Source of the DNA: Campylobacterales bacterium
GTDB taxonomy: Bacteria; Campylobacterota; Campylobacteria; Campylobacterales; Sulfurospirillaceae
Assembly: GCA_024280575.1 (NCBI GenBank)
Contig: JAJRPV010000014.1
Coordinates: 49,593-113,592 of the forward strand
Reading direction: 5' to 3'
DNA: 64,000 bases
The translations under genes and the position numbers were made by a program. Shown here piece by piece: positions 4,442 through 39,052 of this stretch. The notes under the pieces are model-generated. The model was given only the letters and a program-made list of their open reading frames with translations, did no database searches and was not told where the DNA came from. The stretch's first letter is position 1, and every line of letters starts with the position of its first letter.

Positions 4442-4720
4442 ATGATAAAAATAACAAATAAAGGTAAAAAATCTTGGGTAACATTTACAACTGAACCTAT
4501 AGATGTAGAATCAGTAAAGATTTGTGGGGAATGGAACGAATGGAAAAGTGAACCCATGAAAAAAAAGAAAAATGGAGAGTTTTATATAACCAAAATTATA
4601 AACTCTAACAAAAATTACCAATTTGGCTACGAACTTGGTGATGGCAGATGGATATGTGATGAAAGCGTGGAAACAGTAATGTCCCCATTTAATTCACAAA
4701 ATTCACTACTAGAGATATAA
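4442..4720 (+). CDS. Stand-alone isoamylase early-set / CBM48-like glycogen-binding protein
   Basis: VTF...VKICGEWNEW..EPMKKKKNGEF...YQFGY...W..D pattern of AMPK-beta/isoamylase N-terminal domains. Confidence 0.8.
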   Translation: MIKITNKGKKSWVTFTTEPIDVESVKICGEWNEWKSEPMKKKKNGEFYITKIINSNKNYQFGYELGDGRWICDESVETVMSPFNSQNSLLEI

Positions 4721-4721
4721 A

Positions 4722-4937
4722 TTTAGTCGCGAGGAATTTAAAGGGGCTTTGCTCCTGCAAAAGGGGACAGTAAGATAAAATTACAGAAGTTTCTACTTCG
4801 TTCTTTAGTCGCGAGGAATTTTTGCGGAATTTACTTCCGTAAAAAGGGGACAGTAAGATAAAATTACAGAGCAAAGCTCGTGCTTTAGTCGCGAGGAATT
4901 TTATTTGGGCTTTGCCCAAATAAAAGGGGGCAATTAA
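4722..4937 (+). repeat. Tandem array (3 copies, period 80-82 nt) of a two-hairpin cassette ending in the SD/ATG of the next gene
   Basis: TTTAGTCGCGAGGAATTT at 4722, 4804, 4884; AAAAGGGGACAGTAAGATAAAATTACAGA at 4759 and 4842; variable but self-complementary segments between them. Confidence 0.9.
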
Positions 4938-7436
4938 ATGAAAGCAGTAGTTATGGCAGGGGGTTTTGGTACTAGAATACAACCACTAACCCACTCTTGT
5001 CCAAAACCTATGTTACCTGTTGTAAACAGGCCAATGATGGAACACACTATGATGACTCTTAAAGACCTTGGTATCACAGAGTTCATCATTCTTTTATACT
5101 TTAAACCAGAGATTATAAAAGATTACTTCAAAGACGGAAGTGATTTTGGCATAAAAATAAGCTATGTAACTCCAGATGATGATTATGGAACAGCGGGCGC
5201 AGTTAAACTTGCACAAGAACTCATAGGAGACGATAATTTTATCATCATAAGTGGTGATTTAGTTACTGACTTTGATTTTCAAAAGCTTTTTGATTTTCAC
5301 TCTGCAAAAAAAGCAAAACTCTCTATTGGATTGACTTCTGTCGAAAATCCTTTGCAATTTGGCGTAGTTATAGCAAATGAAGACAATGTTATAGAAAAAT
5401 TCTTGGAAAAACCAAGTTGGGGTGAAGTATTTAGCGACACTATAAACACGGGTATCTACATAATAGAACCGGAAATTTTAGAATCTATTCCCAAGGGTGA
5501 AAATTTTGATTTTGCAAAAGATCTTTTTCCAAAACTTATGAAAAATGGCATAGAATTGATGGGCTACAGCATGGAAGGCTATTGGAGAGATGTTGGAAAT
5601 CCAGAGAGTTACCGCGAAGTTCATGCAGATATTTTAAATGAAAAAGTAAAATTTAAAATTCCCGGGGTCAAAACAGAATTTCCCGATGGCACATTATATA
5701 GCAGCATTCCTTACACTTTAGACAAAAGTATAGAAATTATAGGAAATGTCGTCTTGGGAAAAGATGTAATCCTAAAGAAAAATACAAAATTAAACAATAC
5801 GGTTATAGGAAATAATGTTTCAATAGGAAGCGACAGCAATATCCGAAACAGCATCCTGTGGAGTGATATAAAAATCGGTAAAAATGCAAAATTTGACGGT
5901 TGCGTTATCTGCTATGACAACGAAATAGGGAAAAATGTTACGGCAAGGGCCGGTTTGATACTGGCCCAAGGATGTGAGGTTGGTGAACTTACTACATTTG
6001 AACAAGATGTCACGATATGGCCTGATAAAAAGATAGAACCGGCATCCATAGTGAGCCATAGTTTAATCCTCGGAAGCAAATACAGAAACAACATCTTTGA
6101 AAGTGGTAGTGTTTCAGGGAAAAGCAATATAGAACTCTCTTGTGAGATGGCTACAAAACTAGCAGAAGCATTTGCATCGCAATTGCCGATAGGTGTAACA
6201 GTGGCTGTCGGAAGAGACAAAGATAAAAGCTCAAGAATGTTAAAAAGAGCCTTTTTGGGCGGTCTTTTAAGTGCTGGTATTGATGTATTGGATATGAAAA
6301 GCATTCCTCCTTCTATTCTTAGATATGTTATTGCCAAAGATGAGAAAATTGTTGGTGGCGCACACTTCAAAAGAGACATAATCGACACAACAAGTTCACA
6401 AATTACTCTTTTTAATGAAGAAGCACTTAGAATTGATTCAAACTCTATAAAAGGTGTGGAAAAGGCATTTTTTACTGAAAATTTTAGAAGAGTTGATTAT
6501 ACTAAAATAGGCGAAATCAATGAGCTTTCAAGAGAAGATGAATCCTCAAAATACATAAAAGATATTGAAAATGAGATCGACCACAGCATCATAAAATGTG
6601 GTGGATTTAAAGTCGCAGTGGATGTTATGCACGGAAGCACCGCCGATATTTTTCCGACTTTATTAAATGATCTTGGGGTTGAAAACATAGTTTTAGACGC
6701 TTATTATGATGAAAAGAAATTATCAAATATAAAAATCTTGGAAAATCGTGCCAAATCAAATATTTCAAATATAGTAAAAAGTTTAAGTTATGATTTGGGA
6801 ATTATCATTTATCCAAATGCTCAAAGACTTTTACTCGTAACTGATGAAGGAGAGGTTCTAGATAAAATAAAAGGACTCTTGAGCATACTTTATCTTCTAA
6901 ATATGGAAGAAACAGATAAAAAACTAAAAGTCTTTTTACCTACCTGGGCTCCTGATATGATTGAGTTTGAAAACTTAGATATAGAAAGAGGAAAATACTC
7001 AAATTTTAAAGCTCAGAAATTAAAAGAGTATGATCTCATAGCCACGATGGATGGAAACTTTGCTTTTACAGAGTTTGGCGTGACTCGAGATGCGATGTAT
7101 GCCAGTTTAAAAATTATGGAATTACTTAGCTGTCATGGTATAAAAATATCAAATTTGGCAAAAAAAATAGACGATTTTTACTACTCCAGCAAAAAGATAG
7201 AATGCTCTCAGGCTCTCAAGGGTAAAATGATGAGAAAATTCCTTGAGGATTCCAAAGGCAAAAAAGCTTCGACAGCCGATGGCGTAAAAATTTGGGAAAA
7301 TGAAACAGATTGGATTTTGATGATACCAGATCAATATAGTGACCATTTAAATATATATATTCAGGCAAAAGATGAATTAAGTGCCAAAAAAATATATGAT
7401 GAATACAGTGAAAAAATAGCTATTTGGTCAAGATGA
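4938..7436 (+). CDS. Sugar-phosphate nucleotidyltransferase (mannose-1-P guanylyltransferase-like) + LbH + phosphohexomutase-like fusion
   Basis: AGGFGTRIQPLT..PKPMLPV NTP-transferase motif, hexapeptide repeats, C-terminal PGM/PMM-fold region lacking canonical SHNP and DxDxD motifs. Confidence 0.85.
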   Translation: MKAVVMAGGFGTRIQPLTHSCPKPMLPVVNRPMMEHTMMTLKDLGITEFIILLYFKPEIIKDYFKDGSDFGIKISYVTPDDDYGTAGAVKLAQELIGDDNFIIISGDLVTDFDFQKLFDFHSAKKAKLSIGLTSVENPLQFGVVIANEDNVIEKFLEKPSWGEVFSDTINTGIYIIEPEILESIPKGENFDFAKDLFPKLMKNGIELMGYSMEGYWRDVGNPESYREVHADILNEKVKFKIPGVKTEFPDGTLYSSIPYTLDKSIEIIGNVVLGKDVILKKNTKLNNTVIGNNVSIGSDSNIRNSILWSDIKIGKNAKFDGCVICYDNEIGKNVTARAGLILAQGCEVGELTTFEQDVTIWPDKKIEPASIVSHSLILGSKYRNNIFESGSVSGKSNIELSCEMATKLAEAFASQLPIGVTVAVGRDKDKSSRMLKRAFLGGLLSAGIDVLDMKSIPPSILRYVIAKDEKIVGGAHFKRDIIDTTSSQITLFNEEALRIDSNSIKGVEKAFFTENFRRVDYTKIGEINELSREDESSKYIKDIENEIDHSIIKCGGFKVAVDVMHGSTADIFPTLLNDLGVENIVLDAYYDEKKLSNIKILENRAKSNISNIVKSLSYDLGIIIYPNAQRLLLVTDEGEVLDKIKGLLSILYLLNMEETDKKLKVFLPTWAPDMIEFENLDIERGKYSNFKAQKLKEYDLIATMDGNFAFTEFGVTRDAMYASLKIMELLSCHGIKISNLAKKIDDFYYSSKKIECSQALKGKMMRKFLEDSKGKKASTADGVKIWENETDWILMIPDQYSDHLNIYIQAKDELSAKKIYDEYSEKIAIWSR

Positions 7437-9457
7437 AATTAGCGACTATTTGGCACATGCATCAGCCCGACTACCGCGACAATAGTGGGGTGATGCAGAT
7501 GCCCTGGGTATTTTTACACTCCATAAAAGATTATTATGATATGCCTTGGATGATGAGCAGACATAAAGGTATCAAGGCTACTTTTAATATAACTCCTCCT
7601 TTGATAAAACAGATAAAACTCTATTTTGATGAACCTTGTAAATATGATTACTTTTTAAATCTATGGTATAAAAACGGTAGTGAACTTGATTCAAATCAAA
7701 GAGAATGGATGATAAAGATTTGCAAAAGCGCACAGTTTGACACCATGGTATCGCCACTTCCTCGTTTTGTTGATTTATATCGCAAAGAAGTTTTAAATGA
7801 TGATGAATTTTTTGATTTGGAAGTTTTGTTTATACTCTCTTGGTGTGGCGTATATTTAAAGCAAAACAGTCAAGTCGTATCGTCCCTCATAGAAAAACAA
7901 GAAAATTATGATTTTAATGATAAGACTATTTTACTAAACGAATTAAAAGAGTTTATTAAGGGTATATTTGATTATTATAAATCCTTACATGTAGAGGGTT
8001 TGATTTCGATCTCAACAACACCTCTAAACCACCCTATTCTTCCGCTGTTACTTGATATGGACAATGCACGAAAAGCAAATCCATCTACTAATATACCGCG
8101 TCTCCATGAGCCTCTGAAAGAAGATGCTAATTTGCAGATTTCAAGAGCGGTGCATTTGTTTTGTGATACTTTTGGCTTTACACCCGAGGGTTTTTGGCCA
8201 GCCGAAGGAGCTGTGGATCAAAACAGTGTAAGGCTTTTGAGGTAACATGGTATCAAATGGATAGCTACCGATGAAGCGATACTCTTCAAATCCATAGAAA
8301 ACAGTGACAGAAAAAACCTATACTACCCTTACAGTTATGATGATGTATGTATTGGTTTTAGAGATCACGGGCTTAGTGATTTGATTGGATTTACATACAG
8401 ATTTTGGGAAGCAGACAAAGCAAGTGAAAACTTTATAAATGCACTAAAAAATATAAATGATGAAAACAACAATGCAACAGTTTTTGTCATACTTGATGGC
8501 GAAAACGCTTGGGAATTTTACAAAAATAACGGCTTTGATTTTTTTAATTCGTTATACGGTAAATTAAACTTATCTCCTTGGTGCGAAACCGTAACTATGG
8601 ACGAAATTTGCCAAATGGACAAAAGGAAACTACCAAATCTTTCGCCTGGAAGTTGGATAAACGGAGAATTTAATACCTGGGTAGGTCATAGTGAAAAAAC
8701 CAAAGCTTGGGATTTGATATTTCAAACAAAAAGAGATTATAAAAAATATGGTAAAAAACTTAATGCAAGTACAAAAGAAGAGATAGTAAAGCATTTCTTG
8801 GCAGCAGAATGCTCAGACTGGTTTTGGTGGTATGGGGACGATCACTATACCGACTTTGGGGCAGAATTTGATATTCTTTTCAGAAATCACTTAATTGATA
8901 TCTATAATCTGATGCAAATTTCACCGCCAAGCACTCTCTTTAAATCTATTTTAGAGAAAAAAAGTGCCATAAATTTTCATATTCCTCCACAATCAAATAT
9001 ATCTCCTATAATAAATGGCTTGCATGACTCTTTTTTCGAGTGGATAGGATGTGGCGTAATTGACGAAACAAAAATTTTCTCAACCATGGATAAAGTAAGG
9101 GCTCCCATCCATAAAATATTTTATGGCCAAGACGAGGAATTTTTGTATTTTGCATTTATCGCAGACATTGATTCTCTCTTAGAGTCTCAAACACTAAATA
9201 TAACGATAGATCCTATCGAAGCGAGTATAAAAATACCGCTAAAATCCGGGTCAGGCAAAATTAAAAAAGATTTTAAAATAGAGTATGCATGCAAACAGTG
9301 GCTCGAAATGAAAATAGATAAAAAAAGTTTCACGCAGAGAAATTTAAATTTTCGTTTTGAGTTGATAAAACAAAAAAGGGTTATCCAAACACTCCCGGGT
9401 TTTGGGGAACTCGTTTGCAATTTAGATACAAACTACAATCATAATTGGTTTATATAA
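7433..9457 (+). pseudogene. GH57 amylopullulanase-like enzyme interrupted by in-frame TAA at 8243-8245
   Basis: WHMHQP, GFWPAEGAV, ILDGENAWE and AECSDWFWW GH57 motifs; the frame continues after the stop (LLR*HGIKWIATDEAIL) into ORF 8381. Confidence 0.85.
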
Positions 9458-9468
9458 GGAAAAAACAT

Positions 9469-11498
9469 ATGCACAAAGTATCATTACTTTTCGGGGTGCA
9501 CATGCATCAGCCTGTTGATAATTTTGGTGAAGCGGTAGATGAAGCTATAGAAAAATGTTATAAGCCATTTTTTGAAACTATGGCTAATTATCCGCAGTTT
9601 AAATTTTCAGTCCACTGTAGTGGTTGGCTCTTGGATCAAATCGTAACAAAACATCCTGATATATTTAAAAATATGCAAAAACTGACTCGTTGTGGCTCAA
9701 TAGAGTGGATAAGTGCGGGATATTACGAACCGATTCTTAGTTCAATTCCATCAAATGACAGAGTAAATCAAATAAATAAATTAAACAAATATATCAAAAA
9801 AAGATTTGATGTAAAACCAAAAGGACTTTGGTTAACCGAGAGAGTTTGGGAATCCTCAATAGTGCCTGATTTAGACAAGGCCGATATTGATTTTGCCTTG
9901 GTTGATGATTATCATTTTTTAAGTAGTGGCTTTGACAAAAGTCAGATGGATGGATACTTTGAAACAGAAGAAAGTGGTAAAAAACTGGCACTTTTTCCAA
10001 TTTCAGGAGCTTTAAGATATGCTCTTCCTTTTTTTAGTGTCGAAAAAGCAATTGATGCGATAGAAAATTGCAAAAAAGAAGAAGACTCTACTGCGATTAT
10101 ATTTGATGATGCAGAAAAGTTTGGCTTGTGGCCTGAGACTTATGAATGGGTATATGAAAAAGGGTGGCTAAAAGATTTTGTAGGAGCAGTGATAAAAAAT
10201 AAAAAAATAAAAACAGAACATTTTGGAGATTTTAAGAAAAAAACCAAATCCAAAGGAATCGCATATCTTAACAATACTTCTTATTTTGAGATGGGAGAAT
10301 GGAGCCTGAGAGAATATCAAACTATCGCCATAGAAGAGCTAAAAAAGCGTGTTGGGTTTGAGTATTTTGAAAATATAGGCATCGCTTTTATAAAAGGCGG
10401 TATTTGGAAAAACTTTTTTGTGAAATACGAAGAAAGCAACTATCTTCACAAAAGAATGCTTTACATGAGCAAATTTCAAGATAAAATGAGCAAAAAATCG
10501 CTCGAGCTTTTATATGCACTTCAAACAAATGATGTTTTTTGGCATGGAGTTTTTGGAGGATTATACTTGCCCAATCTAAGAGATAATGCCTACAAATATC
10601 TTCTAGGCTTAGAAAAAACTTTTGCAAATACAAAAATTCAATACAAAGTGGATGATTTTGATATGGACGGATATGACGAGTTAAAAGTTTTGACAAACTC
10701 ATTTTCTTTTGTTTTTTCATCAAAAAACGGTGGACAAATGGTAGAGTTTGGCTCATTGGATAAATTTTTTAACTGGCAAAACAGTATCACAAGAAGAAAA
10801 GAAGCTTACCATGAAAAGATATTAAATCCTCCTGTTATTCAGAACAATGAACAAAGTAACGATGAGATAGCAACTATCCATAATTTGGTTGAAGAGATAG
10901 ATGATAATCTTAAAGAAAATCTGATCTTCGACTGGTATCTAAAATACTCTTTTATAGACCATATCTCAAATGTGCCTTTTAATCTTGAAAATTTTAAAAA
11001 GGCAAATTTCAGAGAAATCGGAGATTTTGCAAATCAACCTTTTGAACTTGATAAAAGAGTTAAAACATTCAGCAGAGATGGCGGTATTTACCTTGATAAT
11101 ATGTTTAAAACAAATATTCAAAAAAATATACTTTTAAAGAAAACGGACTGAAAGAAAACCTTACATGTAGAAGCGAGTTCAGAGATAAGGCCTTTTATGG
11201 CGTAGAGTTCAACTTTCACTTCGCACATCCGAATCTTGTAACGATTAATGATAATCTTATAAATGATGGGCTAAACTTAAAACATATAAAATCTTTGGAT
11301 ATCGTAGATGATTTTACAAATAAAAAACTAACTATCACTTCAAATATAGAGCTTGATATGCATGCTTATATTTTAAAAACGATATCTCAAAGTGAAAAAG
11401 GATTTGACATGGTAAGCCAACAAATTTCTTTCATATTGTCAACTGAATTTGCACAAAATTTAGAATTATCATTAGATATCGAGGTTACAGATGTCTAA
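9469..11498 (+). pseudogene. GH57 alpha-amylase/4-alpha-glucanotransferase with -1 frameshift in A7 run 11120-11126
   Basis: GVHMHQP, GLWLTERVWE, FDDAEKFG motifs; adding one A gives QKKYTFKENG...FYGVEFNFHF, continuous with ORF 11295-11498. Confidence 0.85.
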
Positions 11499-12504
11499 CA
11501 TAAGATTGGATTTACTACGCAACAAGTATGTTCTAATAGCTCCGGAAAGACTTCATCGTCCTGATTTTTACCGACAATCTTCTTCTAAAATCAATACAGA
11601 GAATTGCCCATTTTGTGATGGTCATGAAGATATGACTCCCCATGAGATATTTGCTATGAGAGACAATGAACCAAACAGCAATGGCTGGAAAACAAGAGTT
11701 GTTCCAAATCTATATAAAGCTGTACAAGTTGAATTGGAAAGTAGCTCAAAAATAGAGGGTATATTTGAAACTATCCAAGGAGTTGGAGCCCATGAAATCC
11801 TGATAGACTCACCAAATCACGATAAAGATATAGTTACACTTGATACTCTCTTTATTGAGCTTTGGCTAAATACTATGATAAAAAGAATAGAAGATTTAAA
11901 AAACGATAAAAGGCTGATTCACTTAAGTATTTTTAAAAACTACGGACAAAATGCAGGAGCAACGCAAGTCCATCCTCATACGCAACTGTTGGCACTTCCT
12001 ATTATGCCAAAAGATGAACTAAATTTTTTAAAACGAAATTTTTATTATTATAAAAAACACGGCAGAGGAAAACTTCAAGATATCATAGAAAATGAAAAAA
12101 TATCTAAAGACAAGAGAGTTATAGAAGAGATTGATAATTTTATAGCATACTGTCCATTTGCCAGTAGCTTTCCTTTTGAAGTTGCCATTGCACCTTTGAA
12201 AAATATACCTTCCTTAGAGCATTGCAATCATGGAGAAATTTCAAATTTAGCTCTCATGATTCAAAAAGTTTTTGAAAAACTGCATTTTCAACTAGGTCGA
12301 TTTGATTACAATCTATACTTTAGATTAGCCCCATTAAATAGAAATTTTGAAAATGAAGCATATCTTTCTTCAATTCCTGAAAATTTTCGTTTTAGCATCC
12401 ATATAACTCCGAGAATTTACAGATTCGGAGGATTTGAGCTTTCAACCAATATGGCTATCAATCCGGTATCTCCCGAAGAGTGTGCAGAGCTCTTAAATTC
12501 ATGA
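11491..12504 (+). CDS. GalT-like HIT-family nucleotidyltransferase (galactose-1-phosphate uridylyltransferase family)
   Basis: CPFC, RVVPNLY, HPHTQ active-site motif, CPFAS.FPFE. Confidence 0.85.
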   Translation: MSNIRLDLLRNKYVLIAPERLHRPDFYRQSSSKINTENCPFCDGHEDMTPHEIFAMRDNEPNSNGWKTRVVPNLYKAVQVELESSSKIEGIFETIQGVGAHEILIDSPNHDKDIVTLDTLFIELWLNTMIKRIEDLKNDKRLIHLSIFKNYGQNAGATQVHPHTQLLALPIMPKDELNFLKRNFYYYKKHGRGKLQDIIENEKISKDKRVIEEIDNFIAYCPFASSFPFEVAIAPLKNIPSLEHCNHGEISNLALMIQKVFEKLHFQLGRFDYNLYFRLAPLNRNFENEAYLSSIPENFRFSIHITPRIYRFGGFELSTNMAINPVSPEECAELLNS

Positions 12505-13877
12505 AAATTCTATTTGCCGCAAGCGAAATTTTTCCATATGCAAAAAGTGGAGGTTTGGCAGATGTGGCAAATGCACTTCCCAAAGCATTAAACAAAGAAA
12601 TTGAAGTTATATCCGTGATGCCCTTTTATGGTTTTATGGACATCGCAAATTTTCAAAAAACCGACATAAAATTTGATATCAATTTGGGCGGTATAAACTA
12701 CAACATAGAATTGCTTTGCAAATTAAACAAAGGCGTTTTAACTTACTTTATCAAAGCACCTCTTCTAAGCACTACTAAAAATCTATATGGTGACAACACG
12801 GCTTATGCGAACAATGACATAAGATTTGGAATCTTCAGCAAAGCTATAAGTCATCTTGCCGAGACTCTACATGTAGAGATTGTTCATCTAAATGATTGGC
12901 ATTGTGCACTTAGTGCTTTTTGGCTAAAAGATACAAAAATCAAAACAATATTTACGATACACAATCTCGCATATCAAGGAATTTTTGAAAAACATACTTT
13001 AGGCAGGTTAGGTATAGATGAAAAACATTTTAACTTTCAAGATTTAGAGTTTTACGGAAATTGCAACTTTATGAAAGCCGGCATCAAATACAGTGATGCC
13101 ATCACGACAGTCAGTCCGACTTATGCAAAAGAGATTTTAACTCCACAGTTTGGTTGTGGATTAGACGGCTTTTTGAGATTTTACAAAGATAAAGTAAGTG
13201 GCATTTTAAATGGAATTGATACAGAAATTTTTAATCCAACAACTGATAAAACAATCTTTAAAAATTATGACAAAAACTCACTCTCTTTAAAATAGGAAAA
13301 CAAAAAAGAGTTGTTTAAAAAAATCAAACTAAAAAATACAAAAATACCTCTTTTTGTTATGATTAGCAGATTAGTAGAGCAAAAAGGTTTCGATATCATT
13401 TTAGACTCGATAAACGACTTAACAAAAGAAGAGATAAATCTTTTACTTTTGGTTGACGGCGAAAGCAAATATAAAAAACCTCTCATGAGATCAGCAAAAA
13501 AATATAAAAATTTTGAACTAATCTTCGGATATAACGAAAGTTTATCACATCAAATTTATGCTTCAGCTGATTTTCTACTTATGCCTTCCCTTTTTGAGCC
13601 ATGCGGACTAAACCAAATGATATCTATGGCTTATGGCACAATCCCGATAGTCCATAGCATTGGCGGTTTAAAAGACAGCGTACATGAAAACAGCAAAAAA
13701 TGCGGAGCCGGAATCGTCTTTTCAAAGCCCAGCAAAAAAGCTTTTATGCTGGCAATTAATCGGTCTTTAAACTTGAAAAACAGAGTTGCTTTGCAAAAAT
13801 TTAATATGCAATGTGATTTTTCTTTTGACAAAAGTGCCTTAAAATATATCAAATTATATAAAAAAGTGTTATCATGA
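12501..13877 (+). pseudogene. glgA: Glycogen synthase paralogue 1 interrupted by in-frame TAG at 13293-13295
   Basis: KSGGLADV, HLNDWH, TIHNLAYQG, EPCGLNQM; the same frame resumes after the stop (SLK*ENKKELF). Confidence 0.85.
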
Positions 13878-14698
13878 ACTTAGCGATAGATGCAGGAGGA
13901 ACAAACCTAAGAGCATCTGTAAAAAATATAACATATAGAGAAAAAAGTAACAAAATAGGTTTAGCCAGTTTTATAGAAGGGATACTTGGCAAACATAAAA
14001 ATATAAAAACTATCGGCATATCTTATGCCGGTCAAGTCGAAGATGGCGTCATAATCGATTCACCAAATATCAAAGTAGATATTAAAAATATCAAAGAGTA
14101 TTTTAAAGCCAAATACGATATCTCTTTATTTATAGAAAATGACCTGACTTGCGCAGTAATCGCAGAAGCAAGTGAGCTAAAAAGTAAAAATATCTGTGCT
14201 TTATATGTGGGGACCGGTCTTGGTTTAGGCGCTATCGATCACGAAAAAGTTATAAAAGGAAACAACAATCTTTCTTGTGAAATAGGACACATACCATACA
14301 AAAAAGCTCCTTTTAGATGCGGTTGTGGGCGAGATAACTGTATAGAAAACTTTATCTCAGGTGCAGGCATCATCAAGTGGATAGATTATTATAATCTTAC
14401 ATGTAGCCCTACTTTGGAAGCTTTGAAAAATGATGAAAATCCTGATTCCAAAAAGATTCTAAAAGAGTTTGAAGAAGCACTTTTTTTTGCAGCCGGTACC
14501 ACAATAACACTTTTTAATCCAGAGATTTTAGTTCTAGGAGGTGGCATAATAGAAGCAAATCCGTACCTAGTAGGAAAAATTATATCCAACATAGACAATT
14601 TTGCTCTAAAACCTATATTAAAAAATTGTAAAATAATAAAAAGCGAATTACAAGATGCATCTCTCATCGGTGCTTCTTTACTAAAGGACATAAAATGA
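13874..14698 (+). CDS. ROK-family sugar kinase (probable glucokinase)
   Basis: IDAGGT, ENDL, GTGLGLG, EIGH and CGCG..C zinc motif. Confidence 0.85.
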   Translation: MNLAIDAGGTNLRASVKNITYREKSNKIGLASFIEGILGKHKNIKTIGISYAGQVEDGVIIDSPNIKVDIKNIKEYFKAKYDISLFIENDLTCAVIAEASELKSKNICALYVGTGLGLGAIDHEKVIKGNNNLSCEIGHIPYKKAPFRCGCGRDNCIENFISGAGIIKWIDYYNLTCSPTLEALKNDENPDSKKILKEFEEALFFAAGTTITLFNPEILVLGGGIIEANPYLVGKIISNIDNFALKPILKNCKIIKSELQDASLIGASLLKDIK

Positions 14699-16164
14699 AA
14701 AAATTAAATATTTTATTTGTAGCAAGTGAAGTTGTTCCCTTTGCAAAAACAGGAGGACTAGCTGATGTTGCGGGTGCTCTTCCTAAAGCATTAAAAAAGT
14801 TAGGTCACAATATCATCGTTGTGATGCCAAGATATTATAAAATCAATAAGTCAAAACTTACTCATATTCCCGGAGCTCTCGGGGTTCCTATGGGTCCTAT
14901 GGGGGAACTTTGGGCAGGAATTTATAGCTCAACTCTGCCAAACAGTGAAGTGCCGATTTATTTTATAGATTATGAAAAGTTTTTTGGCAGAGGTGGTCTT
15001 TATGATGAAAATGGGCAACCTTACAAAGATAATGAAAATCGTTTTATATTTTTATCAAAATCAGCTTTTATGCTATGCAAGAAATTGGGATTTACTCCCG
15101 ATATCATACATGTAAACGACTGGCATACAGCTACTATGCCCCTTCTTTCTAAAACAAGATTTGTGTATGATTTTGCAAATACCGCAACGGTTTTAACTAT
15201 ACACAATCTTCAGCATCAAGGCGAGTTCTTCAAAGGTGCTATTGATGTACTTGAAGTTGGCTGGGAGCATTTTAATCCGATGGAATTTGAAAGCCATGAT
15301 GTATTTAATGCTCTAAAAGGAGGTATTGCCCATGCTGACGCAGTTACTACCGTATCTCAAAAATACGCCAAAGAGATACAAACAAAAGAGTTTGGATTTG
15401 GTCTGGAAAACCACATACAAGCCCATACTGCAAAACTTTTTGGCATATTAAACGGAGTGGATTACAGTGAGTGGAATCCAAGTATTGATGAAGCTATAGC
15501 CAAAAAATATGACACAAATGATATGAGCGGCAAAAAAGCATGCAAAAAAGCCTTGCAAAAACATTTTGGACTAAAAATTGATGAAAATATACCGCTAATT
15601 GGTTTTGTAGGCAGATTTGCCGAACAAAAAGGCATAGGCTTGATTGCCGAGATTATGCATGGCTTAAAAGATTTGGATTTACAAATCGTGATGCTAGGTA
15701 CAGGAGAAAAATGGGCAGAATTTTTCTTTAGTGATCAAGCAAGCAAACATAAGCATAAGTTTGGCGTTCATGTAGGATACAGCGATATATTAGCACACCA
15801 AATAGAAGCGGGAAGCGATCTGTTTTTGATGCCTTCTTTGTTTGAGCCTTGCGGACTTAACCAGATATACTCCTTAAGATACGGCACGCTTCCGATAGTG
15901 CGAGCAACTGGCGGACTTGATGATACGATAGAAAATTATGATCCAAAAAGCTCTACATGTAACGGTTTTAAATTTTATGAAGCAAGTGGACATGCCCTTT
16001 ACAATACCGTAAAATGGGCAGTTGATACATATTATAATGACAAAGAAAATTTTGATAAAATGCGCAAGCGAGCCATGAAGATGAGATTTGACTGGACAAA
16101 ATCAGCCAAATCGTACGAAGAGGTATATAAATACGCTCTTGAAAAAAGAGGGGTAAAAAAATGA
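14695..16164 (+). CDS. glgA: Glycogen synthase (GT5) paralogue 2, intact
   Basis: KTGGLADV, HVNDWH, GRFAEQKG, EPCGLNQIYSLRYGT. Confidence 0.95.
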   Translation: MKKLNILFVASEVVPFAKTGGLADVAGALPKALKKLGHNIIVVMPRYYKINKSKLTHIPGALGVPMGPMGELWAGIYSSTLPNSEVPIYFIDYEKFFGRGGLYDENGQPYKDNENRFIFLSKSAFMLCKKLGFTPDIIHVNDWHTATMPLLSKTRFVYDFANTATVLTIHNLQHQGEFFKGAIDVLEVGWEHFNPMEFESHDVFNALKGGIAHADAVTTVSQKYAKEIQTKEFGFGLENHIQAHTAKLFGILNGVDYSEWNPSIDEAIAKKYDTNDMSGKKACKKALQKHFGLKIDENIPLIGFVGRFAEQKGIGLIAEIMHGLKDLDLQIVMLGTGEKWAEFFFSDQASKHKHKFGVHVGYSDILAHQIEAGSDLFLMPSLFEPCGLNQIYSLRYGTLPIVRATGGLDDTIENYDPKSSTCNGFKFYEASGHALYNTVKWAVDTYYNDKENFDKMRKRAMKMRFDWTKSAKSYEEVYKYALEKRGVKK

Positions 16165-18083
16165 AATATACAATGTATTATGATGTAACAAGATTTAGTG
16201 AGCTTGATATATATTTATTCAAAGAAGGAACTCACTCCAAATTATATAAACATCTAGGTTCTCATCTCATGAAAAGAGAAGGTGTTGAGGGTGTCTATTT
16301 TGCTCTGTGGGCTCCGCATGCAAAAGGCGTGAGCGTTATTGGCGACTTTAACAAATATGATGAAAATGCACACAAATTACAATTGAGAGGTGATGGTTCC
16401 GGCATATGGGATGGATTTATAGAAAATGTAAAAGAGTATGACATTTACAAATATCACATCTTCAATGATTTTGAGAATCTAAACGCAAACAAAGCTGATC
16501 CTTACGCTTTTTACGCTGAAGTTGCTCCAAATTCCGCTTCAAGAGTATATAACATAGAAAACTTTACCTGGGATGATGAAAAATGGATGAAAAAAAGAGC
16601 CAAAAATAATTCACACAAAAATGCCATATCTGTTTATGAAGTGCATCTTGGATCTTGGAGAAGAAAAGTGGAGGAAAACAACCGATATTTGACTTACGAA
16701 GAATCTGCACGCGAACTAGCAATCTACTTAAAAGAGATGAAATTTACACATGTTGAATTGATGCCTATCACAGAATTTCCTTTTAAAGGTTCCTGGGGAT
16801 ATCAGACCAGCGGGTATTTTGCTCCGACTTCCAGATTTGGAGAACCAAAAGATTTCATGAGATTTGTTGAAGTGATGCATCAAAACGGCATAGGAGTCAT
16901 ACTCGACTGGGTACCTTCACATTTTGTGACTGATGGTCACGGATTGATGAACTTTGACGGAACCTGTCTTTATGAGCACGAAGATCCGCGTCTTGGATAC
17001 CATCCTCAATGGGGAAGTGCGATATTTAATTATGAAAGAAATGAAGTAAGGGAATTTTTGATAAGTTCTGCCATGATGTGGCTAGACATTTATCATATAG
17101 ACGGGATTAGAGTCGATGCAGTTGCGTCTATGCTATATCTTGATTATGCACGCGAAGAAGGGGACTGGATTCCAAATGAGTTCGGAGGAAATGAAAATCT
17201 AGGAGCCATAAAATTTTTGAAACAACTCAATTCTACTGTCGGTGAATTTCATACAGACACCATGATGTTTGCCGAAGAATCCACAAATTTTCCACAAGTT
17301 ACAGGAAAAGTAAGCGAGGGAGGTCTTGGATTTGATTACAAATGGAATATGGGTTGGATGCACGACATACTAAAATACATGAAAAATGACCCGATTCACA
17401 GACAATATCATCATAATGATTTGACTTTTAGTTTTGTTTACATGTACAATGAAAACTACATACTGCCTCTCAGCCATGACGAGGTAGTACATATGAAAGG
17501 CTCCTTAATCAACAAAATGCCCGGAGACAATAACCAAAAATTTGCAAATCTAAGGGCGATGTACTCTTTGATGTATGCACATCCCGGCAAAAAACTTCTT
17601 TTTATGGGAGGAGAATTTGCACAATTTGCTGAGTGGAATTTTGAAAAAAGCCTGGATTGGCATTTACTTGATCAAGAAAACCATAAAGGAATCAGCGATA
17701 TCATAAAAGAGTTAAACAAACTCTACAAAAAAGAACCGGCGCTTCACAAGTATGATTGTGATCCAAAGGGATTTGAATGGATAGACGAAAATGATCATAG
17801 TGCAAATGTGATATCCTACATACGAAAAGCAAAAAAAAGCAAAGATAACATAATAGTAGTTTGTAATTTTTCAGACAAACCGCATATCGGCTATGAAGTT
17901 GGAATCAGTGAAGAAGGTAAGTATAAAGAGATATTTAATTCACAAGACAAACAATTTGCAGGTTGGAGCAGTAAAAACAAAGAGATACTAAAGACGATTG
18001 ACAAATCCGTCCACGGAAGAGATTTATCCCTAAAAGTAACTCTGCCGCCACTTAGTGTAATATATATAAAAAAGGAGAATTAA
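16161..18083 (+). CDS. glgB: 1,4-alpha-glucan branching enzyme (GH13)
   Basis: WAPHA, YEVHLGSW, SWGYQ, RVDAVASM, AEEST, LSHDEVVH. Confidence 0.97.
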   Translation: MKYTMYYDVTRFSELDIYLFKEGTHSKLYKHLGSHLMKREGVEGVYFALWAPHAKGVSVIGDFNKYDENAHKLQLRGDGSGIWDGFIENVKEYDIYKYHIFNDFENLNANKADPYAFYAEVAPNSASRVYNIENFTWDDEKWMKKRAKNNSHKNAISVYEVHLGSWRRKVEENNRYLTYEESARELAIYLKEMKFTHVELMPITEFPFKGSWGYQTSGYFAPTSRFGEPKDFMRFVEVMHQNGIGVILDWVPSHFVTDGHGLMNFDGTCLYEHEDPRLGYHPQWGSAIFNYERNEVREFLISSAMMWLDIYHIDGIRVDAVASMLYLDYAREEGDWIPNEFGGNENLGAIKFLKQLNSTVGEFHTDTMMFAEESTNFPQVTGKVSEGGLGFDYKWNMGWMHDILKYMKNDPIHRQYHHNDLTFSFVYMYNENYILPLSHDEVVHMKGSLINKMPGDNNQKFANLRAMYSLMYAHPGKKLLFMGGEFAQFAEWNFEKSLDWHLLDQENHKGISDIIKELNKLYKKEPALHKYDCDPKGFEWIDENDHSANVISYIRKAKKSKDNIIVVCNFSDKPHIGYEVGISEEGKYKEIFNSQDKQFAGWSSKNKEILKTIDKSVHGRDLSLKVTLPPLSVIYIKKEN

Positions 18084-18084
18084 G

Positions 18085-19332
18085 ATGTTAAGTTTTGATA
18101 GAAGTTTTGATTTTCAAAACACACAAAAAGAGATAGAGAAAATGGACAGTGCTTTTGAGGCATTGAAAAAAGAGATGGACAGTGACGAGATAGGATACTA
18201 CAAACTGCCACAAAGTTCGCTTGACATAGTTGAAAAAGTTAAAGCTCTACATGTAGAGAATTTTTCGCAAATAGTGATTATAGGAATTGGTGGATCAAGC
18301 CTTGGCATAAAGGCAGTTGACCAGATACTCAGACCTTACGGTAAAAATATCAAAGAGATACTGTATCTTGAAAACTCTGACCCCGTCAGCATCAGCTTGA
18401 CTCTTAAAAAAATCAAAAAAGAAGAAGCTCTGTTTTTTGTTATATCAAAATCAGGCGGAACGATAGAGACTACTTCTATATTTAAAACTGTTATACAATA
18501 CTGCTCACTAGATTTAGATGGAGTCGATAAGAAGCGCATATTTGCTATCACTGACAGTGGTTCCAATCTCAGCGATTTTGCTAATTTTCACCAAATTGCA
18601 CAGTTCAATATACCTCTAAATGTAGGCGGAAGATTTTCAGTTCTAAGTGCGGTAGGAGTTGCTCCTTTGATGATGGCAGGATACGATATGAAAGCTCTTT
18701 TAAAAGGTGCGGGAGATTTTGTCAAAAGTTTTTTTGCCGGAGATGAAAATCATCTCTTGGAAAAAGCATGTTATTTAAGCGACAAATCAAAAACTACACC
18801 TATAAATGTACTCTTCTCTTATGCAGACAGATTGGAAAACTTCACAAAATGGTTCGTTCAACTTTGGGCAGAATCACTCGGAAAAGTGGACAATCATGGC
18901 GCACATGTAGGGCTGACTCCAGTAGGACTGATAGGCGCTGTAGATCAACACTCGTTTTTACAACTCATCATAGAAGGAACCAGAGACAAAACAGTAACGC
19001 TCATAAAAGTAGAAGATTTTGGAGATGACTTGAGAGTACCTGATATCTCACTGAAAAACATAGAAAAGACAAATTTTATAAATGGCAAGAAATTCAACAC
19101 TCTCATCAATGCACAATGTGATGCTACAATGCAGAGTTTAATAGATACTAAAGTTAGTACAGATATAATAATGCTTGATTTTGTGAGCCCGGAAAATATC
19201 GGAGCGTTGATTATGTACTATGAATTACTTACTTCAGCAGTCGGCTCTATGACAGATATAAATACCTACAATCAACCAGGAGTTGAGCTAGGCAAACAAA
19301 TCTTATATAAAAATCTACAAAAACAGGGATAA
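18085..19332 (+). CDS. pgi: Glucose-6-phosphate isomerase
   Basis: GIGGSSLG, SKSGGT.ET, GGRFSVLS, QPGVELGK. Confidence 0.95.
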   Translation: MLSFDRSFDFQNTQKEIEKMDSAFEALKKEMDSDEIGYYKLPQSSLDIVEKVKALHVENFSQIVIIGIGGSSLGIKAVDQILRPYGKNIKEILYLENSDPVSISLTLKKIKKEEALFFVISKSGGTIETTSIFKTVIQYCSLDLDGVDKKRIFAITDSGSNLSDFANFHQIAQFNIPLNVGGRFSVLSAVGVAPLMMAGYDMKALLKGAGDFVKSFFAGDENHLLEKACYLSDKSKTTPINVLFSYADRLENFTKWFVQLWAESLGKVDNHGAHVGLTPVGLIGAVDQHSFLQLIIEGTRDKTVTLIKVEDFGDDLRVPDISLKNIEKTNFINGKKFNTLINAQCDATMQSLIDTKVSTDIIMLDFVSPENIGALIMYYELLTSAVGSMTDINTYNQPGVELGKQILYKNLQKQG

Positions 19333-19334
19333 AA

Positions 19335-19415
19335 ATGGAAAATTCTATGCGAAGCATAAGCTTTAGTCGCGAGGAATTTTTTAGGAATTTACTTCCTAAA
19401 AAAGGAGACAGTTAA
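19335..19415 (+). other. 26-codon bridging ORF (MENSMRSISFSREEFFRNLLPKKGDS*) formed by a fourth copy of the two-hairpin cassette
   Basis: ATG 2 nt after the pgi stop; its TAA directly abuts the glgP ATG; contains the core TTTAGTCGCGAGGAATTT at 19362. Confidence 0.7.
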
Positions 19416-21059
19416 ATGAAACTAATCACATATGATATAAACAAAAAATATGAAAAAGCAGTAGCGTATTTTTCTATGGAATTTGCCATAGATCAGGCAC
19501 TCAAGATTTACTCAGGCGGACTTGGTTTTTTAGCCGGCTCTCACATGAGAAGCGTTTATGACCTTAAGCAAAATGTTGTGGGTATCGGACTTCTTTGGAG
19601 TTTTGGATATTATGATCAGACCAGAAACGAAGACAGAACTCTAAGACCTACTTTTACCAGAAAATTTTACTACTTTTTGGAAGAACTTGATATTGATGTC
19701 AGGGTAAGAGTTCACAATCAGGATGTAAAGATAAAAGCATTTTTGGTCAAACCTGAAGTTTTTGGCTCGGCTCCTATCATATTGCTCTCAACTGATATAG
19801 ATGAAAATGACTATTTAGCCAGAACTATAACACATAAATTATACGACGGAAACGAGAGAACAAGAGTTGCTCAAGAGATAGTTTTGGGAATTGGCGGAAC
19901 AAAAGTGCTCGAAGCATTAAATCACAAAGTTGATATTTATCATATGAATGAAGGTCATGCTCTTCCTCTGGTTTATCAACTCTATTCAAAATTTAAAGAT
20001 ATGGATGAGATTAGAAAAAGAGTAGTTTTTACCACTCACACACCAGAAGCTGCGGGAAATGAGATACACAATATACATTTTCTGCAAGAGATGGGATTTT
20101 TCAATGGCTTGGATATGCAAACCATAAGAGAGATAAGCGGCTATCAAAATGATGATAACTTCAGTCTGACGGTTGGGGCTTTAAGAAGTGCAAAGATAGC
20201 AAATGCAGTATCAAAAATACATGAAAAAGTTTCAAACGAAATGTGGTCAGGTGTAGAAGGAAGATGTGAGATAATATCTATAACCAATGCACAAAACAAG
20301 AAATACTGGACAGACAAAACTCTGATAAGAAATCTTGACGAACATGAAGATTATGAACTTGTTGCGAGAAAAAAACATCTCAAAAAATTACTTTTTGATA
20401 TCGTGGCAGATCAAACCGGAAAGATGTTTGACCCAGAAATTCTAACAATAGTCTGGGCGAGAAGATTCGCAGAATACAAAAGACCGGGTTTGCTGGCATA
20501 TGATTTGGAAAGATTTGAAAATCTTATGAAAAGAGTTAAGATTCCTGTTCAAATCATATGGGCAGGCAAGCCGTATCCAGGTGATTTTGGAGCTATTGAT
20601 CTGTTTAATGAACTCATAGATATGTCTCATCACTACCAAAATATGGCAGTTCTAATAGGATATGAACTCACTCTTTCAAAATTCCTCAAACAAGGTAGTG
20701 ATATTTGGCTTAACACACCAAGAATCACAAGAGAAGCCAGTGGAACCAGTGGGATGACTGCCAGCATGAATGGCTCTATTCACTTCTCGGTCGATGACGG
20801 TTGGCATCCTGAGTTTGCAAGAGACGGCAAAAATGCTTTTACGATTCCAGAACTAGACCACAAAATGTCAATAGAAGAGCAAGACAGACTAGACAATAAA
20901 AACATGATGGATATACTAGAAGATAAAATCATCCCAACATATTATAATAACCATAAAAAATGGGTAGAAATCATGAAAAACGCGATGACAGAAATAGATA
21001 TAGATTTCGACTCAGGAAGAATGGCAGAACAATACTATAAAAAGATGTTTAATCACTAA
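19416..21059 (+). CDS. glgP: Alpha-glucan (glycogen) phosphorylase, short type
   Basis: YFSMEF, YSGGLG.LAG, HMNEGH, WARRFAEYKR, EASGTSGM. Confidence 0.95.
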   Translation: MKLITYDINKKYEKAVAYFSMEFAIDQALKIYSGGLGFLAGSHMRSVYDLKQNVVGIGLLWSFGYYDQTRNEDRTLRPTFTRKFYYFLEELDIDVRVRVHNQDVKIKAFLVKPEVFGSAPIILLSTDIDENDYLARTITHKLYDGNERTRVAQEIVLGIGGTKVLEALNHKVDIYHMNEGHALPLVYQLYSKFKDMDEIRKRVVFTTHTPEAAGNEIHNIHFLQEMGFFNGLDMQTIREISGYQNDDNFSLTVGALRSAKIANAVSKIHEKVSNEMWSGVEGRCEIISITNAQNKKYWTDKTLIRNLDEHEDYELVARKKHLKKLLFDIVADQTGKMFDPEILTIVWARRFAEYKRPGLLAYDLERFENLMKRVKIPVQIIWAGKPYPGDFGAIDLFNELIDMSHHYQNMAVLIGYELTLSKFLKQGSDIWLNTPRITREASGTSGMTASMNGSIHFSVDDGWHPEFARDGKNAFTIPELDHKMSIEEQDRLDNKNMMDILEDKIIPTYYNNHKKWVEIMKNAMTEIDIDFDSGRMAEQYYKKMFNH

Positions 21060-23031: not shown

Positions 23032-24410
23032 TTATATTCTCTTAAAATCGTCACTGATTCGCACTATATCATCTTCTCCTGTATATTCTCCGACTTGTGC
23101 TTCTATTAGTATTACCGGTATTTTTCCTTCATTTGAAAGTCTGTGAAGTTCTCCCATTTTTATATAAGTTGATTCATTTGGTCTTACAAGTTCGGTTTTG
23201 TCTCCAACTGTTACAGTAGCAGTTCCGCTCACCACTATCCAGTGCTCATTTCTGTGGTAATGTTTTTGCAAACTCAAACGCTTTCCCGGTTTCACTTCTA
23301 TCCGCTTTATCTTATAGCCCGGCGTATCTTGAAGTACAGTATATGTTCCCCAAGGCCTGTATCCTGTTAGGTGGATATTGTGAAGTTCTGTATCTTTTTT
23401 GACTTGCTTGACTATCTCTTTGACTTTTTGAGAACTTCCTTTTTTAGAGATAAGTATAACATCACCGGTATCAACGATGATAGTATCTTCTATATCAACT
23501 GTCGCGATATATCTTTGCTTCGAATATATGAGATTGTTTTTACTGTCTATGTTGTAATATTTATCATTTTTCGTATTTCCGTCTTCATCTTTTGGCAACT
23601 CTTCATAAAGAGCGTCAAAACTTCCCACATCTGACCAATTTATATCCGAAGGCACCACTTTTACTTTTGAAGATTTTTCCATTACCGCATAATCAATACT
23701 GTCTTCAGGTATATTTACCATATCTTCATGCAAAACTCTTAAAGTAGCCATATCTGTGTCATATTTTGCTCTCTCAACAGCCTTAAGAGAATTTTCACAA
23801 ATCTCAGGAGAGTACTTTTTAAGTTCCTCTAAAAATACTTTTGCTTTAAACATAAACATACCGCTGTTCCAATAATAATTACCCTCTTTCAGATATCTAC
23901 TTGCAGTTTGAAAATCCGGTTTTCATGAAAAGCCTTTACACCGTAACCATCTGCTTCTATGTATCCAAATCCTGTTTCTGCAAAAGTGGGTGTTATACCA
24001 AAAGTTACAAGATTGTCTTTTTCTGCCAATTCCTTGGCTACATGTAGAGCTTTTTTGTATGCCACTTCATCTTTTATAAGATGATCAGATGGTGTTACGA
24101 GTATCAATTCATCAGGATCCAAAACCATACATGCAAGCGCTATGGCAGGAGCCGTATTTCTTCCTATGGGTTCTAGTAGATACTTATTATTCTCTTTTCC
24201 TAACTCTTCTAGTTGGTCGAGGGCTAAAAAGTATTGCTCTATATTTGAAACTATAAATTGTGAATTACATATTTTAGAATTTCTTTCTACTGTTAATTGA
24301 AATAGTGATTTATCATCAAATAGTTTTGAAAACTGTTTTGGCATAAGTGTACGGCTTATCGGCCACAGTCTTGTTCCGTTTCCTCCACACAATATTATAT
24401 TTGTCATCAT
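23032..24410 (-). pseudogene. manC: Mannose-1-phosphate guanylyltransferase/mannose-6-phosphate isomerase, frameshifted at T4 run 23920-23923
   Basis: LCGGNGTRLWPISR, EPIGRNTAPA; one extra A restores FHEKPD...YYWNSGMF; C-terminal cupin RPWG...LSLQKHYHRNEHW. Confidence 0.9.
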
Positions 24411-37832: not shown

Positions 37833-38213
37833 TTATCTTTCCTTCTTTGAGATATCTTTGTCAGATTTCATAGTGCTTTGTCCATTAAATATAGCATTTG
37901 CTTCTACCATCAACTCTTTAGAAATAACTTTTCCTTTACAAGTGCTACCGATCAATAATTCAATACTATCACAATCAGCGCCACCTTCTAAAAATCCGTT
38001 TAATATCAATTTCTTAGCTTTAATATTTCCATAAAATTTTCCTTTTTTACCTATGGTTACCATACTCTTTGATATTATCTCTCCCCGCACTTCACCATCT
38101 ATATGTATTCTTGTCGTACAGTTTAAAACACCTTCTATCTTTGTTCCACTGGCTATTATGGTTGTTTCTGATGAAGAAATTGATTGTTGTTCATGCTTAT
38201 TAAAGACTCCCAT
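37833..38213 (-). CDS. Bactofilin (CcmA-like polymer-forming cytoskeletal protein)
   Basis: TTIIASGTKIEG...IHIDGEV.G.I beta-helix repeats; follows an M23 peptidase as in the Helicobacter csd-ccmA locus. Confidence 0.9.
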   Translation of the reverse strand: MGVFNKHEQQSISSSETTIIASGTKIEGVLNCTTRIHIDGEVRGEIISKSMVTIGKKGKFYGNIKAKKLILNGFLEGGADCDSIELLIGSTCKGKVISKELMVEANAIFNGQSTMKSDKDISKKER

Positions 38214-39052
38214 GGCACTCTTCTCTCCTTTTTAAATATCTCTTTGAAATTATCTTTACTCCACTTTAAAAAATATATAGGATTTAGTGGTCTCAATATA
38301 AATCTAACTTCATAATGGAGATGAGGTCCCGTTGAGAGCCCACTATTTCCAGTATATCCGATAATTTCACCTTTTCTTACAAATTGTCCAGCTTTTACAA
38401 TCATCTTTTTATATAAATGCCCATACCGTGTTTGAAAACCAAAATTATGATCTATTATTACAAGATATCCGTAGCCACTATTTTTATTAAATCCCGCAAA
38501 TTCAATAACTCCATTAGCTGGAGATTTAATTGGTGTTTTTCTGCTTGCTTTTAAATCTATACCTCTATGAAATTCTCTTCGTTTTAAAATCGGATGTTTT
38601 CTCCATCCAAATTTTGCAGTAATTCTCATATCCGGCAAAACATTTCCGCTTGGTATAGAATTTAATAAAGATTGTTCCTGAATCTTTGTTAAATTTATAT
38701 TTTCCAGTCTTGTGTTAATCTCTTCGGTACTATCTGGCGTTAGACCTATCAACTCTTCTATATCACTTACCTTATCTTTGATTTCTTAATACTCTTTTGT
38801 TTTTACACCAATTTCTTTTTCTAGTTTTGTATTGCTCTTTTTTAGTTTTACATATTCATGTTCAACTATCTCTTTTTTTGACTGAACAGCATCAACCTCA
38901 TACATCAAAAAAGAGATAAAAAAAGAACCTAATATGATAAGCAAGACAATAAACAAAGTAAAATACAACACAATTCTTTTCATAACCTGGTGAAGCAAAT
39001 AATGTTTTGAACCATAGATATCTGTGATAGTTATCGTAAATCTATTTTTCAA
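38156..39052 (-). pseudogene. M23 peptidoglycan endopeptidase (Csd1-like) with in-frame TAA at 38786-38788
   Basis: N-terminal TM, KEY*EIKDKVSDIEELIG in one frame, HRGID, YGHL, STGPHLHYE. Confidence 0.88.

Follow-up and report, generated by a model that had tools for sequence, protein, structure and literature searches.

A GlgA-type glycogen operon of Campylobacterales without GlgC, headed by a nucleotidyltransferase fused to a predicted phosphohexomutase pseudoenzyme

In the textbook scheme, bacterial glycogen synthesis is committed and regulated at the GlgC step. The present work concerns a glycogen gene cluster without GlgC in a bacterium of the order Campylobacterales, which belongs to the Campylobacterota, bacteria that rank among the main primary producers of vents, seeps and redoxclines. 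The nearest relatives in public records carry the labels Sulfurospirillum sp., Sulfurospirillaceae or Sulfurimonas, in agreement with the assignment to the Campylobacterota. The cluster, at positions 4442-21059 of the window (the whole 64,000-nucleotide stretch of DNA that was analyzed), comprises twelve co-directional glycogen genes, all detected on the plus strand by hidden Markov model (HMM) searches, and is the Campylobacterales version of a GlgA-type glycogen operon, in which the GlgA-type pathway is combined with a different, unstudied module for donor supply and control. GlgC was found in none of the approximately 650 Campylobacterota genomes searched, about half of which keep a tightly conserved GlgA operon headed by an uncharacterised enzyme, a fusion of a nucleotidyltransferase with a phosphohexomutase-like domain. 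A literature search found no paper on the donor supply of this operon.

The reading of the module that we consider on balance probable, from the sequences of its proteins, is that the CugP/GMPP-type transferase of the fusion makes the nucleoside diphosphate glucose (NDP-glucose) used by GlgA, that the catalytically dead mutase attached to it regulates this activity, that a stand-alone phosphoglucomutase (Pgm) feeds glucose 1-phosphate (Glc-1-P) into the pathway, that a GalT-like enzyme buffers the donor, and that two GH57 enzymes replace MalQ and GlgX. If this is true, the module is a second, independent solution to the supply and control of the glucosyl donor, thousands of proteins are misannotated in both of their halves, and there is a physiological context for a conserved domain without catalytic function as well as for an NDP-glucose phosphorylase of the plant type.

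The original prediction, which was made from the window, held that the cluster lacks the RAKPAV motif of GlgC and makes its donor by a non-canonical route, and it proposed a search of the whole genome for glgC, glgE and treS. The genome (2.06 Mb in 86 contigs, 94.8% complete, with a G+C content of about 33%) contains no canonical glgC over the TIGR02091 cut-off of 424.9 bits, a threshold that was exceeded by all eight named genomes used as positive controls; the top match in the genome is the fusion itself, at 140.7 bits. A six-frame motif scan found no RAKPAV-type motif in any real open reading frame (ORF) of the genome, the fusion having CPKPMLPV, and the absence seen in the window is thus borne out genome-wide. 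The cut-off was likewise exceeded by no protein in 251 genomes sampled from the order or in 401 genomes of high quality sampled from the phylum, so a cluster without GlgC is confirmed for this genome, although as a trait of the order rather than a peculiarity of one member. The second part of the proposed search also returned absences. GlgB is the sole GH13 gene of the genome in a PF00128 search and the genome has no GH77 gene; neither the TreS/GlgE route nor GlgX or MalQ is therefore encoded, and a maltose-1-phosphate route through GlgE and TreS, or the use of canonical GlgX and MalQ, was rejected because the genes are absent. Enzymes that interconvert hexose phosphates are encoded elsewhere in the genome: a stand-alone Pgm (TIGR01132, 851 bits against a cut-off of 778), a PMM/PGM-like protein and GlmM.

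The features of the cluster, whose neighbouring genes have stop/start overlaps mostly of 4-13 nt, are as follows:
4442-4720, plus strand: first gene of the cluster, a stand-alone glycogen-binding module of 92 aa, CBM48/AMPK1_CBM (PF16561, 30.5 bits)
4722-4937, plus strand: three tandem copies of a hairpin "gene-start cassette" with the core TTTAGTCGCGAGGAATTT (repeat search of the genome)
4938-7436, plus strand: the fusion, 832 aa, NTP_transferase, LbH and PGM_PMM_I/II domains (Pfam, NCBIfam)
7424-9457, plus strand: GH57a, amylopullulanase-like, candidate debranching enzyme and GlgX analogue (PF03065 on both halves, translation)
9445-11498, plus strand: GH57b, predicted 4-alpha-glucanotransferase and MalQ analogue (PF03065, PF09094 and PF09095 positions 1-160; PF09095 positions 222-283 in the ORF 11295-11498)
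11491-12504, plus strand: intact GalT-like nucleotidyltransferase/phosphorylase of the HIT superfamily (PDB match to 1z84, motifs)
12501-13877, plus strand: GlgA1, GT5 glycogen synthase (TIGR02095, 272.8 and 204.9 bits on its two halves, 494.9 bits when read with one TAG)
13874-14698, plus strand: ROK-family sugar kinase (PF00480, 144.7 bits)
14695-16164, plus strand: GlgA2, intact GT5 glycogen synthase (TIGR02095, 538 bits against a cut-off of 328)
16161-18083, plus strand: GlgB, GH13 branching enzyme (NF003811, 935 bits against a cut-off of 741)
18085-19332, plus strand: Pgi, glucose-6-phosphate isomerase (NF003016, 550 bits against a cut-off of 487)
19416-21059, plus strand: short alpha-glucan phosphorylase, 547 aa (TIGR02094, 440.8 bits against a cut-off of 191.7)

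The content, order, common direction and overlapping stop and start codons described by the original prediction agree with these results, as does the KxGG motif that it reported in both synthases, which a motif scan identified as K(S/T)GGLADV in GlgA1 and GlgA2. Both proteins exceed 328 bits with TIGR02095 and carry KxGGL, GlgA1 with one TAG in its reading frame, and they are accordingly assigned to the GlgA family.

The fusion consists of an NTP-transferase catalytic domain (aa 1-235), a left-handed beta-helix (aa 253-352) and a domain with the phosphohexomutase fold (aa 386-832). The transferase domain has a mean pairwise identity of 73% and keeps the G-loop GGFG(T/S)R, K23, D107, FLEK158P and GYWRDVG. 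Among solved structures, the N-terminal half scores highest with tlr0611 (PDB 8X7S; 170 bits over aa 1-319), which was deposited as a UTP-glucose-1-phosphate uridylyltransferase and is treated here as CugP-type because the deposited activity is the one that defines CugP. The cyanobacterial CugP proteins (sll1558; tlr0611) have in common with the fusion the architecture of an NTP-transferase followed by a beta-helix, an insertion of two residues that follows the EKPS motif, and the motif INTGIYI(I/F)EPE, but they are approximately 390 aa long, lack a mutase-like domain and are not encoded in a glycogen operon, and their identity to the fusion of about 40% is too low for nucleotide specificity to be transferred. 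The two also share a history of mislabelling as GDP-mannose pyrophosphorylases. CugP is described, in a paper that cites Maeda 2014 for it, as a UDP-glucose pyrophosphorylase that was earlier annotated as a mannose-1-phosphate guanylyltransferase (PMC7401256). The names given to the fusion in public records, "mannose-1-phosphate guanylyltransferase/phosphomannomutase" and "sugar phosphate nucleotidyltransferase", are not evidence for mannose, because the CugP family has been misnamed in the same way.

The C-terminal half of the fusion matches TIGR03990 (166 bits, aa 386-827), and its AF2 model is a complete four-domain PMM/PGM fold with Foldseek TM values of 0.83-0.86 to 1wqa and 9du5. The half thus has the fold of the alpha-D-phosphohexomutases but not their catalytic loops, for which the consensus is (T/S)(A/G)SHNP, DxDxDR, GEx(S)GH and R(x)SGTE. 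An alignment of 20 fusions with the GlmM and PMM/PGM of the genome itself gave the following:
phosphoserine loop: SASHNP in active mutases, GGAHFK or AGVHFR in the fusions
metal loop: DGDADR in active mutases, YPNAQR or YPHGQR in the fusions
sugar loop: GEQSGH in active mutases, DGNFAF in the fusions
phosphate loop: RYSGTE in active mutases, IPDQYS in the fusions

The fusion encoded in the cluster itself has GGAHFK, YPNAQR, DGNFAF and IPDQYS. All four loops are degenerate in every one of the 20 orthologues and in all 120 database homologues, none of which has the serine loop or the DxDxDR motif. The half is nevertheless under selection, because its mean identity is 50%, it has 50 invariant columns, and the replacement loops are themselves conserved; judged by these features, it is a conserved pseudoenzyme. 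The interpretation of the fusion as a bifunctional mutase/transferase was rejected, since the four catalytic loops are lost, and the original interpretation is corrected accordingly: the loss of the mutase loops in all homologues leaves one enzyme with a non-catalytic domain. By analogy, binding of a hexose phosphate and regulation or scaffolding of the transferase are the most likely functions of the C-terminal half. Control of a pyrophosphorylase by a catalytically inactive partner is found in GMPPA/GMPPB (PDB 7D72) and in plant ADP-glucose pyrophosphorylase with its large subunits. In those systems the inactive partner and the transferase are paralogues, whereas in the fusion the partner would be a dead phosphohexomutase joined in cis, with an inferred regulatory role.

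The second line of evidence for the role of the fusion is its distribution in the sample of 251 genomes of the order. The fusion, with a length of about 840 aa, is present in 112 of these genomes, in which it is the top match to the glgC model, while GlgA is present in 115 and the GalT-like protein in 114. The joint counts are:
fusion and GlgA: both in 110 genomes, fusion only in 2, GlgA only in 5, neither in 134
GalT-like and GlgA: both in 109 genomes, GalT-like only in 5, GlgA only in 6, neither in 131

The fusion and GlgA are thus discordant in seven genomes (110 of 117 concordant), and all three genes are present in 106. The GalT-like gene is missing from four genomes that have the fusion and GlgA, three of which are at least 97% complete, and three genomes have the GalT-like gene and GlgA without the fusion, among them G061 (83% complete) and G183 (92%). 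A total of 19 loci, representing at least eight families, have the gene order fusion, GH57a, (GH57b), GalT-like, GlgA, ROK. This pattern corresponds to one module that has been inherited and retained. The original prediction had presented the arrangement as a feature of one Campylobacterota genome, and this scope was too narrow, as the layout belongs to the whole order.

Several considerations weigh against a donor-making role for the fusion. The functions of the cluster proteins are predicted from sequence, and no sequence feature fixes the nucleotide of the glucosyl donor or, likewise, its sugar. GDP-mannose pyrophosphorylases are nearly as close to the transferase domain as tlr0611 is (146-164 bits against 170), the top NCBIfam model for the fusion is NF052502, a mycobacterial mannose-1-phosphate guanylyltransferase that the fusion matches at 248 bits, short of the cut-off of 440, and the confidence of the AF2 model is low in the substrate loops of the transferase, from which no specificity can be read. 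Five genomes have GlgA without the fusion, and because the genomes are related, the counts of co-occurrence and synteny are not independent observations. In addition, GalU is over its cut-off in the genome (380.8 against 326.8 bits) and is present in 236 of the 251 genomes, so UDP-glucose could be obtained without the fusion. The original suggestion of a non-canonical donor route is therefore upheld only in part: GlgC is absent and the fusion tracks GlgA, but with GalU present a known route through UDP-glucose is possible.

This last point, together with the mannose-type model match and the public names of the fusion, favours an alternative in which the housekeeping GalU supplies UDP-glucose as the donor and the fusion makes GDP-mannose or some other sugar nucleotide that has no part in chain elongation. 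A precedent exists in Pseudomonas aeruginosa, which has no glgC and whose GlgA prefers UDP-glucose, supplied by GalU (PMC8084333). The likeness is that both organisms have a GlgA-type alpha-glucan system without GlgC and with GalU; P. aeruginosa differs in having the TreS/GlgE route, whereas GlgB is the only GH13 gene of the Campylobacterales genome, and in lacking the transferase/mutase fusion and the GalT-like partner. The distribution of GalU proved uninformative as a test of this alternative because the gene is nearly universal: it is equally common in the 134 genomes without GlgA and carries no glycogen signal. The fusion, on the other hand, tracks GlgA and heads the operon, and both GlgA proteins score far over the cut-off of a model of the "ADP-glucose type". 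A separate ManC is encoded in the exopolysaccharide (EPS) locus, as the original prediction had noted; the gene is indeed there, at 23032-24410 on the minus strand, although in this assembly it is frameshifted. A GalU-supplied donor is on these grounds unlikely, and a role for the fusion in making the donor, which is likely to be ADP-glucose or UDP-glucose, is preferred.

The original prediction listed the GalT-like enzyme, whose gene is confirmed, but passed over it as a candidate for donor metabolism. Its best PDB match is the Arabidopsis ADP-glucose phosphorylase At5g18200 (1z84), at 161 bits over the full length, compared with 53-77 bits for true GalTs. It has the CxxC and HxHxQ motifs of the GalT branch of the HIT superfamily, in the form of a CPFC zinc motif and an HPHTQ nucleophile motif that 119-120 of 120 homologues retain, and it falls below the equivalog cut-offs for GalT (93.3 against 102.1 bits with TIGR00209; 107 against 448 with NF008724). 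Galactokinase (galK, TIGR00131) has no match in the 94.8% complete genome, and a Leloir-pathway role was rejected on the basis of this absence and of the equivalog scores. The reaction of At5g18200 converts ADP-glucose and phosphate to ADP and Glc-1-P, as reported in a paper that cites McCoy 2006 (PMC4136846). The plant enzyme, which shares the zinc CxxC and the HxHxQ motifs, is cytosolic and its physiological role is unknown; the GalT-like gene, in contrast, shares an operon with GlgA in over 100 genomes, and the substrate of its product is predicted.

With an ADP-glucose phosphorylase as the closest characterised homologue, conserved catalytic motifs, and a gene that lies directly 5' of GlgA in nearly all loci and accompanies it in 109 genomes, the GalT-like protein could itself be the source of the donor, making ADP-glucose from ADP and Glc-1-P by a reversed phosphorylase reaction at no ATP cost, with the fusion in some other or regulatory role. 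The sum of this reaction and that of GlgA, however, is the reverse of glycogen phosphorylase, which by established thermodynamics has no driving force at cellular phosphate levels, and the four genomes in which the fusion and GlgA are present but the GalT-like gene is not also argue against it. In the complete genome G184, moreover, one ORF of 872 aa (L051:5954-8572) joins the catalytic domain of GH57a (aa 6-408) to the GalT-like protein (aa 545-865), a fusion to a glucan hydrolase and not to a synthase. Because of the missing thermodynamic pull and the four genomes that lack it, the GalT-like protein is ranked under the fusion as a donor source, and we regard this alternative as quite unlikely.

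In the preferred reading, with the fusion as the donor-making enzyme, glucose 6-phosphate from Pgi or the ROK kinase would be converted to Glc-1-P by the stand-alone Pgm, and the N-terminal nucleotidyltransferase of the fusion would convert Glc-1-P to NDP-glucose, replacing the GlgC step. GlgA1 and GlgA2 would polymerise the NDP-glucose and GlgB would branch the product. The C-terminal half of the fusion would bind a hexose phosphate and regulate or scaffold the transferase in the manner of the allosteric sites of GlgC or of the inactive GMPPA subunit. The GalT-like protein would act as an NDP-glucose:phosphate nucleotidyltransferase that links NDP-glucose and Glc-1-P reversibly, for buffering, salvage or a switch to degradation, a role that we infer from its homology and gene linkage. 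Degradation would be carried out by the short phosphorylase together with the GH57 4-alpha-glucanotransferase, as the analogue of MalQ, and the GH57 amylopullulanase-like enzyme, as the analogue of GlgX. A bolder version, to which only a small probability is assigned, combines the two candidate donor enzymes: the dead mutase would be a hexose-phosphate sensor that confers GlgC-like allostery, and with the HIT-type ADP-glucose phosphorylase the fusion would form a two-enzyme donor module in which NDP-glucose is made either at the cost of ATP or reversibly from ADP and Glc-1-P. If such a module exists, these chemolithoautotrophs would charge and discharge glycogen according to their ADP/phosphate state, by a logic of supply and control that has no described counterpart among bacterial glycogen pathways.

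The replacement of GlgX and MalQ by GH57 enzymes, already suggested in the original prediction, is reasonable in view of the homology matches and of the absence of GH77 genes and of any other GH13 gene. An intact orthologue of GH57b matches the 4-alpha-glucanotransferase of Thermococcus litoralis (1K1W) over its full length, at 473 bits, and GH57b itself has the GH57 catalytic domain and the AmyA middle and C-terminal domains, the last of them split by a frameshift in this assembly. An orthologue of GH57a matches GH57 amylopullulanases (8ZYI/9IHT) at 289 bits over the catalytic domain; 8ZYI is described in PMC12106739. These homologues are archaeal or thermophile enzymes that have been studied for starch processing, whereas GH57a and GH57b are members of an operon in mesophilic bacteria, both of them interrupted in this assembly. 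The cluster resembles glgBXCAP and MalQ of E. coli in its GT5 GlgA with KxGGL, its GH13 GlgB, its glucan phosphorylase, and the combination of synthesis and degradation in one operon. It differs in having no GlgC, GlgX or MalQ, in whose place there are apparently a CugP/GMPP-family transferase with a dead mutase and the two GH57 enzymes, and in its additional ROK, Pgi, CBM48 and GalT-like genes.

Among these additional genes, the ROK kinase, which occurs at the same place in 14 distant loci, is probably a glucokinase that recycles glucose freed by the GH57 enzymes. The CBM48 gene is found 5' of the fusion in loci L011-L013, L046-L048, L050 and L052 as well. The sole recognisable glucose-6-phosphate isomerase of the genome sits within the glycogen operon (18085-19332), a tblastn search of the genome having found no second copy, so that a housekeeping step of gluconeogenesis is transcribed together with the storage genes. 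In L011, from a close relative (genome G008), approximately 690 bp of extra sequence lie between the ROK and GlgA1 genes, at 7928-8619.

Three of the cluster genes are interrupted in this assembly, which the original description, otherwise correct about the genes present, did not notice; these interruptions and a genome-wide excess of such lesions are new for this stretch. GH57a has an in-frame TAA at 8243-8245 (its intact orthologues are 673-678 aa long), and GlgA1 has an in-frame TAG at 13293-13295, between its two Rossmann domains, which is likewise missing from intact orthologues. GH57b is frameshifted near 11118-11150 at a run of seven A, with its last approximately 115 aa in another frame; the end of its C-terminal domain is read from the ORF 11295-11498. 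In the EPS locus, the bifunctional manC has a frameshift within an A-run, between FHE and KPDFQ. Intact versions of all four genes occur in five to nineteen related loci, including five uninterrupted loci from the same family.

Two nonsense codons and one frameshift among twelve genes, in a strain whose relatives are all intact, could mean that the glycogen system is being lost and that the three genes are true pseudogenes. To judge the lesions, the background rate of interruption in the genome was estimated with 307 ORFs of at least 150 aa, taken from about 400 kb of two genomes of the same genus and matched to this genome. Stops or frameshifts interrupted 31 of 244 orthologue comparisons, in 24 distinct genes that include those for SecD, a PcrA/UvrD-type helicase, RadA, FeoB and TrkA, compared with 3 of 81 and 4 of 86 (3-5%) when the same survey was made between the two relatives. 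Against a base rate of about 11%, three lesions in twelve cluster genes are no excess (binomial P of about 0.14), and the lesions are therefore taken to reflect the genome or its assembly and not the glycogen cluster. Every frameshift zone holds an A/T run of 5-9, as sequencing errors would show. Pseudogenisation specific to the cluster was accordingly rejected, and loss of the pathway in this strain is considered very unlikely. An alternative genetic code was also rejected, because the 22 in-frame stops comprise all three stop codons (TAA 10, TAG 7, TGA 5) and are found in place of a variety of residues (E, K, S, Q, R, Y and D).

Further interrupted genes in the window are:
38162-39052, minus strand: interrupted M23 peptidase
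40196-41740, minus strand: interrupted diguanylate cyclase
46128-47705, minus strand: interrupted SecD
61588-63627, minus strand: interrupted PcrA/UvrD-type helicase

The genome-wide lesions, each a single in-frame stop or a frameshift in an A/T run, affect approximately one in ten of the conserved genes and point either to an error-rich assembly or to a decaying genome. If they are real, the interruption of DNA-repair genes (RadA and the PcrA/UvrD-type helicase) would fit a mutator lineage.

The cassette that separates the CBM48 gene from the fusion gene has an invariant 18-mer, TTTAGTCGCGAGGAATTT, followed by a variable hairpin and then by a Shine-Dalgarno-like tail, AAAGGGGACA. The third of the copies within 4722-4937 provides the Shine-Dalgarno sequence and the ATG of the fusion gene, and a fourth copy, at 19335-19415, stands ahead of the phosphorylase gene. 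The cassette also precedes the fusion gene in three loci of the same family (L011, L012 and L014, the last from a different genus). Across the genome there are 19 exact and 43 relaxed copies, mostly immediately 5' of start codons and sometimes in tandem. The 18-mer was rejected as a glycogen-specific regulator because it stands before many unrelated genes, and the cassette looks like a dispersed gene-start element.

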